From: Dehalococcoidia bacterium
Lineage (GTDB): Bacteria; Chloroflexota; Dehalococcoidia; Bin125
Direction: 5' to 3'
Assembly: GCA_963663895.2 (NCBI GenBank)
Contig: CAXXRD010000001.1
Span: 768,001 to 832,000, forward strand
DNA length: 64,000 nt
The notes below the pieces were generated by a model. The model worked only from the letters and a program-made list of their open reading frames with translations, did no database searches and had not been told where the DNA came from. The translations under genes were made by a program, and so were the position numbers. This document shows positions 2,640-12,158 of this stretch, piece after piece (position 1 is the stretch's first letter; every line of letters begins with the position of its first letter).

Positions 2640-3503
2640 ATGGCCGTGCCGCGCTACACCGTTGGTGCTTTGAGTATCGCAGTCGTGTCGGATGGGACGA
2701 TGTGGCGGGACGGAGGGGCCGTGTTCGGCGCGGTGCCGAAGATGCTGTGGTCGCGAGTGTGCCCCGAGATCAACGAACGCAATGAGGTGCCGTTAGGACT
2801 GAACTGCCTGCTCGTGGAGTCCGAAGGCAAGACCGTGCTGATCGACACGGGTTACGGCAACAAGAACACGGCGCTGTTGGAGAAGCGCGGGGTGCCGGTT
2901 GAACACGGGCGGCTGCTCGCGTCGTTGGAGGCGGCGGGGGTGGGCGTGGAGGATGTCGACGTGGTGATCAACAGCCACTTACACAGCGATCACTGCGGCT
3001 GGAACACACGCCGCGCGGGGGAAGATCTGCGGCCAACGTTTCCCAGGGCACGCTACTACGTGCAGCGGGCAGAGTGGGAAGCAGCGCTCCACCCCAACGA
3101 GCGCACGCGGGCGGGCTACGATGCGGAGCACCTCCTGCCGCTCGCGGAGGCGGGGCAGGTGGAGTTCCTAGAGGGCGAGTACCAAGTGACGCGGGAGATT
3201 CGCGTGATCGAAGCGCACGGGCACACGGCGGATCATGCAGCGGTGATCATCAGCAGTGGCGGCGAGACCGCCGTCTACTTGGGCGATCTGGTGCACCATG
3301 CGGTGCAATTGGAGCGGCTGCCATGGCTGTGCGCCTACGACGACCTGCCCCTCATGTCGATGGAGACGAAGCGGAGGATCGTGGCGGAGGCGGTCGCGCA
3401 TAATCAGCTGCTGATTAGCGCCCACAACACCTTTCCGGGAGTCGGACGGCTACGATCGCAGGAGGGAAAGACACAGTACTTGGTCGAGGCGGGAGGCGCG
3501 TAG
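2640..3503 (+). CDS. MBL-fold metallo-hydrolase, YtnP-like
   Basis: DGGAVFGAVPKMLW, SHLHSDHCG (HxHxDH), GHTADH, GDL; GGAGGAG RBS before ATG 2640. The longer ORF-track start is antisense to ilvE. Confidence 0.9.
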   Translation: MAVPRYTVGALSIAVVSDGTMWRDGGAVFGAVPKMLWSRVCPEINERNEVPLGLNCLLVESEGKTVLIDTGYGNKNTALLEKRGVPVEHGRLLASLEAAGVGVEDVDVVINSHLHSDHCGWNTRRAGEDLRPTFPRARYYVQRAEWEAALHPNERTRAGYDAEHLLPLAEAGQVEFLEGEYQVTREIRVIEAHGHTADHAAVIISSGGETAVYLGDLVHHAVQLERLPWLCAYDDLPLMSMETKRRIVAEAVAHNQLLISAHNTFPGVGRLRSQEGKTQYLVEAGGA

Positions 3504-9058: not shown

Positions 9059-10102
9059 ATGGCGTCCGAGACAGAAGCGCAGGCGCTGCTCGACAAGCAA
9101 GCGATCTGGGACCGGATCATGCTCTACGCGCGCGGGGTCGACCGCTGCGATTGGGATCTGGTGCGGTCCTGCTTCAGCGAGGGGGCGCTCGACGAGCACG
9201 GCGTCTTCAAGGGAACGCTGGACGAATTCGTGCCGTGGATCCAGGAAGCGCTGGCTCGCTATCGCGTGACGATGCACACCGTGAGCAACGTCCAGGTGGA
9301 GCTGGAAGGGGATGTCGCGCATGCCGAGTCGTACGTGACGGCATACCACCGGCTGCCCGGCGCGGACGGGAAGCCCGAGCAGGACTTCGTGGTGGGAGCG
9401 CGCTGGAATGATCGGCTGGACCGGCAGGGCGACGACTGGCTGATCAGTCATCGGCAGGTGGTGTGGGATTGGAACAAGATCGAGCCGGTGGGGCGCGAAT
9501 GGGATTTCAATGAGAGGTATGTGAAGGCACGACGGGACCGGCAGGATCCGGTCTATGACCGGCCGGCGTTCTCGCCGGATTTCCAGCGGCCGAAGGACTT
9601 AGCGGGGCGCGTTCAAGAGTTGGCGGACAAACAGACGATCCGCGAGACGCTGTATCGCTACTGCCGGGGCGTCGATCGGCTGGACCCGGAGCTGATCCGG
9701 TCCTGCTACTACCCGGATGCGACAGACGACCATGGAACGTACCAAGGGCACCGAGACGGGTTCGTGCGGCACGCCGGGGACGGACTCGCGACCATGTTGG
9801 GGACGATGCACTACATCGGCAACGTGCTGGTCGATGTGCAGGACCGAGTAGCCTACAGCGAGTCATACTGTGTCGCTTACCACCGGATGCCGTCACGGAA
9901 GACGGGAGTGGCGGAGCACGTGGTGGCCTGCCGGTACGTGGACCGGTTCGAGCGCCGGGCAGAGCGGCCCTGGCTGCTGGGGGACCGGACGGTCACGTAC
10001 GAATGGAGCCGGATCGACCCGGTGGGCGAAGAGCAAGCGTATGCGCCGTCGTTCCAGCGGGCGCAGCGCAACAAGAGCGACCTCATTTACCAGCGTCCTT
10101 GA
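9059..10102 (+). CDS. Tandem SnoaL-like (NTF2-fold) domain protein
   Basis: Two homologous halves, each with DKQxI...RGVDRxD...RSC...DxHG...TMH...NV...ESY..AYHR. Confidence 0.85.
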   Translation: MASETEAQALLDKQAIWDRIMLYARGVDRCDWDLVRSCFSEGALDEHGVFKGTLDEFVPWIQEALARYRVTMHTVSNVQVELEGDVAHAESYVTAYHRLPGADGKPEQDFVVGARWNDRLDRQGDDWLISHRQVVWDWNKIEPVGREWDFNERYVKARRDRQDPVYDRPAFSPDFQRPKDLAGRVQELADKQTIRETLYRYCRGVDRLDPELIRSCYYPDATDDHGTYQGHRDGFVRHAGDGLATMLGTMHYIGNVLVDVQDRVAYSESYCVAYHRMPSRKTGVAEHVVACRYVDRFERRAERPWLLGDRTVTYEWSRIDPVGEEQAYAPSFQRAQRNKSDLIYQRP

Positions 10103-10141
10103 ACGGCGCGCTCCGGGCAGCACTGTAACGAGAGAGCAGCG

Positions 10142-10615
10142 ATGGCGGAGTTCACGTACCTCTCGAAGAACCGGTTGGTGCTGAAGGATGGCGTGCGGCA
10201 TGCGTACCTAGGCGAGGTGCCAGAGCCGGTGCCGTACGGGGTGCAGGGGGCATTGCGCGAATACTACGGAGCGCCCGCCGGTGGCCCGCCGGTAGCGGCG
10301 ACGCTGGATCATATCGTGGCGGCGGTGGGTGGGTGAATGTACGGCACGCTCGCACGGGCGCTGCGAGCACGGAATGTGGAATTTGACCCGGCAACGTATA
10401 CGGCGGATGTCGAGGGGACGATCGAGGGGCCGGCCGGGCAGGGATCGCCGATCCGGATCACGCGGATCCACGTGCATTATCAGATCGAGATGCTGTCGGG
10501 GGATCGGGAAGCGGCCGAGCGGGCGGTGGCGGTGCACGCGGCAGGGTGTCCGGCGCACGAGAGCGTGAAGGCGGCGATCGCGATCACCGCTTCAGCGGAG
10601 ATCCGCGAGCGCTAG
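10142..10615 (+). CDS. OsmC/Ohr-family protein, probable selenoprotein (UGA 10334-10336 = Sec65, 157 aa)
   Basis: ORFs 10142-10336 and 10337-10615 are in one frame separated only by TGA; LDHIVAAVGG-U aligns with the first OsmC Cys, and AAGCPAHESV supplies the second (CP). Confidence 0.8.
10348..10368 (+). promoter_or_regulatory. Candidate bacterial SECIS hairpin
   Basis: Perfect 7-bp stem GCTCGCA/TGCGAGC with G-rich loop CGGGCGC starting 18 nt after the UGA. Confidence 0.65.
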
Positions 10616-10627
10616 CCGCGGCGGGCG

Positions 10628-10798
10628 CTAGCTCGTGCTCCCCCTGTCTTTGCGGACGGCCTTGCGAGCGCGCTTGAGGATGGCGTCGCGGTAGATCTTG
10701 CGAAGAGAGGCCCCGTGCATGCGGAGAGCGCGGCGCTCCTTTTGGCGCCGGGCGCTGCGGCGCTCGCCGCGGGTGGGTTGATCGCCCGGGTCGGTCAT
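10628..10798 (-). CDS. Small basic hypothetical protein (56 aa)
   Basis: MTDPGDQPTRGERRSARRQKERRALRMHGASLRKIYRDAILKRARK; fills the gap between OsmC and larA. Confidence 0.5.
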   Translation of the reverse strand: MTDPGDQPTRGERRSARRQKERRALRMHGASLRKIYRDAILKRARKAVRKDRGSTS

Positions 10799-10868
10799 GT
10801 CCGTGAGTGTAGGGCGCGTTGACCGTGCGGAAGCGGCCGTGCGACGCTCGCGCCGGGAGGAAAACAAC

Positions 10869-12158
10869 ATGCGGGTGGAGCTGCTGTACGGGGAGCAGGG
10901 GCTGGAGGTGGATCTGCCGGATGGCAGCGACGTGATCCGGCCGAGGGAATCGACGCCGCTGGCGGATCCGGAATCGGCGTTGCGCGACGCGCTGGCCCGG
11001 CCGATTGGGGCGCCGCCGCTATGCGATCTGGTGCGGGCGGACGATCGGGTGACGATCGTGTTCAGCGACCTGACGCGGCCGGCGCCAAACCGATTGTTGG
11101 CACCGGTGCTGCTGCGGGTGGTGGAGGGAGCGGGGATGCCGCGCGATCGGATCACGCTGTTGGTGGGGACGGGGCTGCACCGGCAGATGTCGGCGGCGGA
11201 AGTGAAGGCCCTGTTGGGGCCCGAGGTGGCGAAAGGCTACCGGGTGGTCGTGCATGATGCGCGGGATCCGGACTCGTTGACGTTTCTGCGCCGCTATCCG
11301 GGAGAGCGGCGGGGCGGCATCTATCTCAACTCGACCTATCTGCAGGCGAGCGTGCGGATCGTGACGGGGTTCGTGGAGCCGCACATCTTCGCCGGGTACA
11401 GCGGGGGCGGGAAGGGCGTGCTGCCGGGCGTGGCGGCGGCCCCCAACATCATGCGCAACCACAGCGCGGAGAATCTGCTGCATCCGCAAGCGACCTTCTG
11501 CGTGGGGGCGGGCAATCCCATTTTCGAGGAGATGCGCGACGTGGCCGTGGCCTCCGAGGTGACGTTTCTCTGCAACGTGACGCTGACGGCGGACAAGGCG
11601 GTCAGCGGCTTCTTCTGCGGGGATCTGGTGGAGGCGCACGAGGCAGCGATGGCGGAGGTGGACCGGTCCGCGGTGCGGCCGGTGCCCCATGCCTACGACA
11701 TCGTGGTAGCGACGAACGGAGGATACCCCGCCGATCTCAACGTCTATCAGTCGATCAAGGGGATGGCGGCGGCGGCGCGGGCGGTGCGGGAGGGAGGCGC
11801 GATCGTGCTGGCATCGGAGTGCCGGGAGGGCGTGGGGAACGAAGACTACGCAGAGTTTTTGTCGTCGCGGGAGAGTCCGGAGGCGTTGATGGCGATGCTG
11901 CTGGAGCCCGGGTTCCACCGGATCGACCAATGGGGGATTCAGTGCCAGGCGATGGCGCAGCTGAAGGCGGAGGTGCACCTCTACTCGTCGCTGGCGGCGG
12001 AGACGGTGCGGGCGGCGCACCTCACGCCGTGCGCAGACGTGTCGGCGACGGTGGCGGAGCTGGCCCGACGGGTGGAGGAGCAGTCGGGGGAGCGGGCCAA
12101 GGTGCTGGCGCTACCGTCCGGGTTCCAGGCGATCCCCACGGTGCCGACGGCGGAGTAG
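10869..12158 (+). CDS. larA: Nickel-pincer-dependent lactate racemase family protein
   Basis: SDLTRP, GTGLHR, EPHIFAGYSGGGKG, RNHS, DLNVYQSIKG; GGGAGG RBS before ATG 10869. Substrate not inferable. Confidence 0.88.
   Translation: MRVELLYGEQGLEVDLPDGSDVIRPRESTPLADPESALRDALARPIGAPPLCDLVRADDRVTIVFSDLTRPAPNRLLAPVLLRVVEGAGMPRDRITLLVGTGLHRQMSAAEVKALLGPEVAKGYRVVVHDARDPDSLTFLRRYPGERRGGIYLNSTYLQASVRIVTGFVEPHIFAGYSGGGKGVLPGVAAAPNIMRNHSAENLLHPQATFCVGAGNPIFEEMRDVAVASEVTFLCNVTLTADKAVSGFFCGDLVEAHEAAMAEVDRSAVRPVPHAYDIVVATNGGYPADLNVYQSIKGMAAAARAVREGGAIVLASECREGVGNEDYAEFLSSRESPEALMAMLLEPGFHRIDQWGIQCQAMAQLKAEVHLYSSLAAETVRAAHLTPCADVSATVAELARRVEEQSGERAKVLALPSGFQAIPTVPTAE

Follow-up and report, generated by a model that had tools for sequence, protein, structure and literature searches.

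A probable OsmC-fold selenoprotein gene read through an in-frame UGA in a Dehalococcoidia bacterium

The locus described here lies in a stretch of 64,000 nucleotides (nt) of a Dehalococcoidia bacterium of the Chloroflexota (GenBank assembly GCA_963663895.2, contig CAXXRD010000001.1, positions 768,001 to 832,000), which is the window of this analysis and in whose own numbering all positions are given. Two open reading frames (ORFs) adjoin there in one frame on the + strand, the first coding for 64 amino acids (aa; 10142-10336) and the second for 92 aa (10337-10615). The first closes with a TGA at 10334-10336 and the second opens with an ATG at 10337, without a gap and with the frame kept. When the TGA is decoded, the two become a single frame of 157 codons (10142-10615, + strand) that runs up to a TAG stop at 10613-10615. 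Frame and translation, together with the Pfam OsmC and fold matches given below, mark this frame as a complete coding sequence for an OsmC-fold selenoprotein with selenocysteine (Sec) at codon 65. The read-through peptide is ...ATLDHIVAAVGG-U65-MYGTLARAL... around the site and ...HAAG-C136-PAHESVK... further on. In each of the 30 orthologs, an ATG stands where the protein match starts or shortly ahead of it, and the one at 10142-10144 was taken as the start codon; the GAGAGAG located 5-11 nt upstream of it is a candidate ribosome-binding site, judging from its sequence. An earlier note on this DNA, made from its letters, had described two ORFs abutting in frame across one TGA, and both the layout and the translation agree with it. 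We consider that 10142-10615 is very probably one selenoprotein gene of the OsmC/Ohr fold, in which the UGA at codon 65 is read as Sec. A scan of 9900-10900 for promoters and terminators gave no match on the + strand. On the - strand, a sigma-70-like promoter match at 10308-10337 (TTCACC, 18-nt spacer, TATGAT) overlaps the TGA and was taken as a chance match.

The family of the protein was approached by profiles and by structure. With Cys put in place of U, the protein matched the Pfam OsmC family (PF02566) at 43.5 bits, over the gathering cut-off of 27.5, and the match covered residues 56-149 and profile positions 10-98 of 100, running across the TGA. A six-frame search of the genome with the same profile returned the window gene at 35 bits with one TGA inside the match. 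The AlphaFold2 model, for which 31 aligned sequences were the input, had a mean predicted local distance difference test score (pLDDT) of 83.4 and a predicted template modelling score (pTM) of 0.79. Compared with the PDB by Foldseek, it gave 23 matches at E <= 0.001; those listed, among them 2onf, 1qwi, 1nye, 1lql, 1ml8 and 6ecy, are all OsmC, Ohr, YhfA-type or 'putative redox' proteins. The template modelling scores of these matches were about 0.45-0.58 with a high root-mean-square deviation; for the OsmC/Ohr structures compared below they were about 0.4-0.5, with identities of 11-19% and E values of 8e-5 to 3e-3. Presumably, the high deviation is to be expected if the solved OsmC/Ohr proteins are domain-swapped dimers. 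Together, the Pfam match over the cut-off across the TGA and the Foldseek matches bear out the assignment to the OsmC family that had been made from the sequence. The profile of OsmC proper (TIGR03562) was not reached, at 13.8 bits against a cut-off of 85.8. Outside the Pfam domain, the protein has an N-terminal extension in which E28, P29, V30, Y32, G33, Q35 and G36 are invariant; residues 21-50 were modelled with a lower pLDDT of 60-69.

One other gene of the genome matches the Pfam OsmC profile, at C1:332362-332631, and it encodes a paralog of the Cys type. In a profile alignment, the GALGGCMLITL of the paralog falls on AAVGG-U-MYGTL and its ERGC falls on AAGC136. The TGA had been placed at the first catalytic Cys of OsmC/Ohr proteins, with the second Cys (GCP) following, and both positions indeed align with Cys residues of the paralog. 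Conservation, the Cys homologs, the paralog and the independent assemblies all point to the TGA at 10334-10336 as Sec65 in the column of the first (peroxidatic) Cys of the OsmC fold. Cys136 (TGT, 10547-10549), in the GCPAHESVK block, would be the resolving Cys by analogy with the family. It is invariant in the 31-row ortholog alignment, as are Arg19 (CGG, 10196-10198) and Asp56 (GAT, 10307-10309), the latter nine residues before Sec65. We take the spacing of Arg19 and Asp56 to resemble that of the catalytic Arg and Glu of Ohr, and the two residues are candidate equivalents of them, as an active-site Arg and an active-site acid. Among 57 distant full-length homologs, the Arg19 column holds R in 25 and K in 14, and the Asp56 column holds D in 54 and E in 2.

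The in-frame TGA is shared by the relatives of the gene. The read-through protein was searched against the genomes of 60 relatives and its own genome (61 in all), and an ortholog match was obtained in 32 of them, including 30 of the 36 genomes of the same family and 1 of the 24 from other families of the class. Each match row contained exactly one TGA, at identities of 59-97%. In all 30 loci returned, the TGA occupied a single alignment column within an invariant block, and the 30 orthologs had no further in-frame stops. A scan of named metagenome-assembled genomes (MAGs), with the peptide patterns CPAHESVK and P[VIM][AT]ATLDHI, both of which exclude the TGA column, confirmed 109 loci; the best 80 were retained, and TGA stood in that column in all 80. 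The two sets share genomes and, when combined, comprise 90 distinct gene sequences with identities down to 58%. Because the arrangement is conserved throughout (30/30 and 80/80 loci), the in-frame abutment at the column of the catalytic Cys is far beyond chance. The earlier note had expected either Cys or a conserved TGA at codon 65, and both were found, TGA in the 30/30 and 80/80 loci and Cys in 46 of 57 full-length homologs; TAA or TAG, which it regarded as evidence against Sec, occurred in none of the 110 loci.

A lone in-frame stop resembles a fresh nonsense mutation, and the gene might accordingly be a pseudogene or the TGA an error of sequencing or assembly. This explanation is practically negligible, because 90 distinct genes, with identities as low as 58%, have this TGA in common. 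Moreover, the median ratio of nonsynonymous to synonymous substitution rates (dN/dS) was 0.18 for the part before the TGA and 0.32 for the part after it (Nei-Gojobori method; nine of the 30 orthologs, compared in 36 pairs). These values are well under 1 on both sides, and therefore both halves are maintained as coding sequence. Three runs, each belonging to a different study, have contigs that cover the site; these differ from the window at 3-4 places each, over lengths of up to 901 nt, and agree with it at 10334-10336. Thus, three independent assemblies keep the TGA where the earlier note had looked to TGC, TGT or TGG as a sign against Sec, although this comparison rests on contigs and not on reads, and rare variants could escape it.

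According to the record titles, 68 of the 80 MAG loci belong to Chloroflexota, mostly Dehalococcoidia MAGs, and the other 12 are labelled Methylomirabilota/Rokubacteria, Actinomycetota, Acidobacteria or Clostridia. Copies labelled Actinomycetota, Acidobacteria and Rokubacteria/Methylomirabilota (L109, L117, L120, L123) were near-identical, with terminal branches of 0.017-0.061, which suggests mis-binned contigs or recent transfer; the phylum count of the carriers may be inflated by the former. In one Dehalococcoidia MAG (L114, match 3001-3453), two TGAs occur two codons apart (GTC TGA GGG TGA ATG, or V-U-G-U-M), and the additional TGA may be an error or a nonsense mutation, or may encode a second Sec. 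The sole carrier in the class sample from outside the family (G037:C1:106128-106576) had two overlapping matches (query 3-92 and 75-156) with one TGA each, suggesting a frameshift or an assembly problem. At least half of the sampled words of 9900-10800 occurred in each of 19 public runs, which come from 11 or more coded studies; several of the runs are labelled sponge metagenome, and the host organism may be associated with sponges. In one metatranscriptome run (share 0.09), 10083-10233 was covered by a contig of 151 nt that differs at 2 places, and a further piece of 45 nt, with 4 differences, probably comes from another organism; the contigs of this run do not demonstrate transcription of the gene.

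More distant homologs were sought with a profile among 1.84 billion cluster representatives, with 608 matches at E <= 0.001. The 153 proteins examined (143 new ones from 150 listed and 10 found earlier) consisted of 57 full-length proteins, 27 N-terminal pieces that mostly end in AAVAG, 35 C-terminal pieces that mostly start with MYGT, and 34 other fragments. In the full-length proteins, the U column was occupied by C in 46, W in 3, D in 2, S in 2, and L, G, A and R in 1 each. The C136 column was Cys in 48 of the 57, and both columns were Cys in 43. Among the 46 Cys forms, the next residue was L in 32 and M in 14. The ATG that follows the TGA thus encodes a residue of the family (M/L), and for this reason it need not be a restart codon.

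Our quick maximum-likelihood tree, whose root is arbitrary, comprises 73 rows, of which 50 come from the 57 full-length proteins and 23 are Sec loci picked by hand from the 110; seven proteins with garbled tails (P0179, P0015, P0008, P0200, P0204, P0248 and P0196) were left out. All 23 Sec forms were in one subclade of 29 rows, supported by a Shimodaira-Hasegawa-like approximate likelihood ratio test value of 89, which also contains five nested Cys forms and a W form. A clade of 32 rows with Cys or other residues and no Sec form lay across a branch with a support of 98. The Cys members of the subfamily (for example P0003, P0123, P0124, P0125, P0127 and P0130) interleave with the Sec forms in this tree and share with them the length of 140-168 aa, the N-terminal block, the LD[HY].V.A...C[ML].GT motif and the C-terminal CP..[EQR]S motif. 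They differ in carrying Cys at the Sec column, and because of this they are predicted at full length by gene callers.

The organism appears to be equipped for the decoding of Sec. Its genome (2.37 Mb in 5 contigs, 91% complete, 66.5% G+C) contains selA (498 bits), selB (327 bits), selD (359 bits) and one tRNA-Sec (71 bits), which ARAGORN called SeC with the anticodon TCA (UCA). All components are therefore present for the Sec decoding that had been inferred from the window. A second, borderline match to RF01852 was rejected as a tRNA-Sec, being tRNA-Ser(UGA). The selD gene, outside the window at C2:564495-565427, itself has one in-frame TGA (...LALCGG-U-ASK...), and the selenophosphate synthetase of the organism is, from this sequence, apparently a selenoprotein likewise. 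We take this N-terminal stretch to be where Sec-type SelD proteins carry Sec. All 36 genomes of the family have a selA gene over the cut-off, as do all 32 sampled carriers of the window gene. This ubiquity agrees with the proposal of Sec, but it discriminates nothing within the family.

If TGA were instead a sense codon for Trp or Gly (genetic code tables 4 or 25), the residue would not be Sec. The three full-length database proteins with W in the column (P0004, P0008 and P0126) are possibly translations of this kind. However, TGA is an ordinary stop in the genome, where 992 of the 2310 open frames with 300 codons or more end in it. It also ends 8 of the 30 orthologs, the others of which end with TAG (18) or TAA (4). 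In addition, selA and selB are free of internal TGA, and the column in the homologs is Cys in 46 of 57 cases, not Trp or Gly. We give a reassigned code next to no credence.

Reading of the UGA as Sec in bacteria is expected to involve a Sec insertion sequence (SECIS), and a candidate lies at 10348-10368 (+ strand). It is a hairpin with a perfect 7-bp stem (GCUCGCA/UGCGAGC) and a 7-nt loop (CGGGCGC), and the distance from the UGA is 11 nt to the base of the stem and 18 nt to the loop. Folded alone it has an energy of -10.0 kcal/mol, and in a context of 48 nt its pair probabilities are 0.79-0.85; in the fold of 67 nt (10334-10400), a competing hairpin took the minimum free energy (MFE) structure. 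The bacterial SECIS (bSECIS) model set out in the legend of Fig. 2 of PMC13188914 has a loop of 3-9 nt, a stem of 4-16 bp, a G in the first two loop positions, a distance of 16-37 nt from the UGA and an MFE of -7.5 kcal/mol or lower; our implementation considers contiguous stems only. The hairpin of the window agrees with this model, with the G at loop position 2, and it therefore lies at a bacterial SECIS distance as had been noticed from the letters. At the TGA, a bSECIS was recognized in 26 of 30 ortholog loci, in 70 of the 80 MAG loci (the best 80 of 109) and in 78 of the 90 distinct genes. The background was 1345 of 11160 (12.1%) other in-frame positions of the same genes and 674 of 6000 (11.2%) random positions of the genome. 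The conserved placement of the hairpin gives real yet modest support for a SECIS, and this support consists in the placement, without unusual stability or covariation. An Rfam scan of 10100-10700 (E <= 10) found no SECIS family and gave three chance-level miRNA/sRNA matches (E 4.8-6.7). A second small hairpin, GGUCGAGUUCGACC, which encodes KVEFD and lies at +41 to +54 after the TGA, is present in most relatives; it is absent in the genus of the window, where the codons differ. In about half of the genes, a hairpin was also seen from codon offsets -16 to -10.

Several results weigh against a selenoprotein of the OsmC fold and have to be set beside this evidence. Twelve of the 90 distinct genes fail the contiguous-stem bSECIS test, and the register of the stem varies among genera, between 18 and 26 nt after the UGA. 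For 10334-10400 as a whole, the energy of folding is unexceptional (z = 0.09 against dinucleotide shuffles, of which 104 of 200 fold at least as well). With synonymous-codon shuffles, z was +0.78 for the window gene, with a median of -1.1 over the 30 orthologs. RNAalifold found no common structure and 0 compensatory pairs in 27 distinct 60-nt stretches after the TGA. A hairpin that agrees with the same model and has equal or better stability occurs at 254 of 6000 random positions of the genome (4.2%). Since similar hairpins occur at random positions and the energy is unexceptional, the window hairpin alone is weak evidence. A hairpin is also partly a by-product of the peptide, since the codons for the Ala/Arg-rich LARAL.AR complement one another. 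Of five carriers that bear other phylum labels, 3 have selA over the cut-off, 1 (a Clostridia MAG) has a fragment of it and 1 (an Actinomycetota MAG) gave no match. The alignment with the paralog is weak (probability 22%, E 0.00097), though both redox positions coincide. Sequence-only searches of the PDB, with the single sequence and with a profile, gave nothing significant, with OsmC at E 0.38. It is the comparison of folds that settles the family. The TATA-binding proteins also returned by these searches (E >= 0.085) were taken as spurious. Lastly, it is family likeness that suggests a function as a peroxidase.

The same weighing concerns the possibility that the UGA is a true stop and that translation restarts at UGAAUG, which would yield polypeptides of 64 and 92 aa as the split halves of an OsmC-like protein that assemble with each other. 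An ATG follows the TGA directly in the 30/30 and 80/80 loci, and in the window the ATG is preceded by the G-rich GGTGGGTGGG, with a Shine-Dalgarno-like GGTGG a few bases upstream; gene callers yield exactly these two products. However, the G-rich stretch is not conserved in DNA, and its presence is explained by the conserved AVGG that it encodes. Met at the next position belongs to the family, as Cys homologs have C-M or C-L in a single chain and the paralog has GGCM. A split would delete the catalytic residue, and yet the residues surrounding it are all invariant. The codon is always TGA (110/110 loci), although the terminal stops of the same genes make use of all three codons, and selA accompanies the gene in 32 of 32 sampled carriers. 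We consider a stop with restart improbable on these grounds.

Selenoproteins of the OsmC type are not new as such. According to PMC1088965, an OsmC-like selenoprotein was predicted in 2005 by Zhang, Fomenko and Gladyshev from three Sargasso Sea sequences of COG1765 with the motif UxxT. OsmC-like selenoproteins are also listed in two reviews (PMC9312934 and PMC13188914), and the UxxT motif is given in tables of both PMC1088965 and PMC13188914. By this shared motif, the 2005 family can probably be equated with NCBIfam NF041052, 'OsmC-related (seleno)protein'. In 151 Chloroflexota genomes, we found 10 matches to NF041052 over the cut-off in 9 genomes, with scores of 120-174 bits; nine of the ten have a TGA and the tenth has Cys. 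Five of these members, when TGA was read as U, have GFULLTQ or GFULATQ, in agreement with the published UxxT. The comparison with the published family was made through the motif, the tables and the NF041052 members.

The window protein resembles NF041052 in its OsmC fold, in having Sec at the first Cys with the second Cys kept, and in the hairpin after the UGA. It differs in most other respects. Its score against NF041052 is 26.3 bits, where the cut-off is 95, and in the genome search the window gene fell above E 0.001. The motif is U-M-Y-G-T in the window protein, whereas it is U-L-L-T in NF041052. Unlike NF041052, the window protein has the conserved N-terminal block EVPEPV.YGVQGALREYYG, and it has GCPAHESVK where NF041052 has ERGC[FY]TMQAL. 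From its sequence, the window protein belongs to a subfamily different from UxxT/NF041052, with Sec at the equivalent position; Chloroflexota hold two distinct Sec-bearing OsmC subfamilies. The statement in the earlier note that Sec-containing OsmC-like proteins had been predicted is correct in that such a prediction has been in print since 2005, but the published UxxT/NF041052 family is a different subfamily from the one in the window. The Cys-based OsmC and Ohr proteins (1qwi and 1nye, E. coli OsmC; 6ecy, 1n2f and 1zb9, Ohr) share with the window protein the fold, PF02566 and the two redox positions on the same elements. The window protein differs from them in having Sec for the first Cys, in an identity of 11-19%, in failing TIGR03562 and in its N-terminal extension.

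Full-text searches of the literature found no description of this subfamily, though supplementary family tables were outside their coverage and a prior listing is possible. The term 'OsmC' is absent from the main text of the BSepDB paper, a search that did not extend to the supplementary family lists. All 110 genomic loci have TGA, and Cys forms are only a few nested relatives. Perhaps, then, the gene represents an uncatalogued second Sec lineage of the OsmC superfamily, apart from UxxT/NF041052, almost exclusively of the Sec form and common in Dehalococcoidia MAGs and Methylomirabilota/Rokubacteria; this we put forward tentatively, our doubt slightly exceeding our confidence. The public annotation mostly has the C-terminal half of about 90 aa alone, or two fragments, and some of the entries are named 'OsmC family protein' by NCBI. 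The expectation that standard pipelines would split the gene is therefore realized, as most database matches are this C-terminal half.

In the mechanism that we infer, SelB would be recruited by the stem-loop that begins 11 nt after the UGA and would bring Sec-tRNA(Sec) to the ribosome at codon 65. The product would be a peroxidase, dimeric by inference from its relatives. By analogy with OsmC/Ohr, a hydroperoxide would react with the selenolate of Sec65 to give a selenenic acid, which Cys136 would trap as a selenenylsulfide, and a thiol reductant of the lipoyl or thioredoxin type would restore the enzyme. An Ohr bound to dihydrolipoamide is among the PDB titles of the Foldseek matches.

It is also conceivable that Sec is inserted but serves some other redox chemistry or a transfer of sulfur or selenium, as suspected for some members of the YhfA/COG1765 type. 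The failure at TIGR03562 (13.8 against 85.8 bits) is compatible with this, as are the conserved N-terminal extension outside the Pfam domain, which is modelled with lower confidence, and the proteins of unknown function among the fold matches (2onf and 1ml8). There is also no conserved neighbourhood that points to a substrate or a reductant. However, both redox positions of the peroxidase subfamilies are retained, the invariant Arg19 and Asp56 stand at what would be an Ohr-like Arg/Glu spacing, and bona fide OsmC and Ohr are among the top structural matches. We regard such other chemistry as unlikely, but it is by far the most serious of the alternatives, and a peroxidase remains the function that we favour.

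The flanking genes were inspected as well. The upstream gene (9059-10102, + strand) encodes 347 aa with two SnoaL_4 stretches and a weak match to the beta subunit of ring-hydroxylating dioxygenases; it stops at a TGA, 39 nt before the start codon of the selenoprotein. The downstream gene (10797-12158, + strand) is a homolog of the LarA-type 2-hydroxyacid racemases with a nickel-pincer cofactor. It scores 404.5 bits against the lactate racemase equivalog and does not reach the cut-off of 460. No conserved operon context was found in the 110 loci, whose flanks are only 1.5-3 kb. SnoaL-like and LarA-like neighbours recur in 5 of the 110, all of them close relatives, while GcvPB recurs in 1 and acyl-CoA dehydrogenase in 2, genes to which the flanks seldom reach.

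The gene is neither a new mechanism nor a new kind of element. Its significance lies rather in what the annotation conceals, because systematic mis-annotation hides a redox enzyme that is present in 30 of the 36 sampled genomes of this Dehalococcoidia family. It would be a second lineage of the OsmC superfamily with Sec at the peroxidatic position, and one in which the Sec form outnumbers the Cys form. Dehalococcoidia MAGs are reported to rank with the bacteria that have the most selenoprotein genes (PMC13326102, Table 2), and an OsmC selenoprotein fits this pattern. The subfamily may thus provide a natural case for learning what selenium buys a peroxidase of the Ohr/OsmC type, for example in rate or in resistance to over-oxidation.

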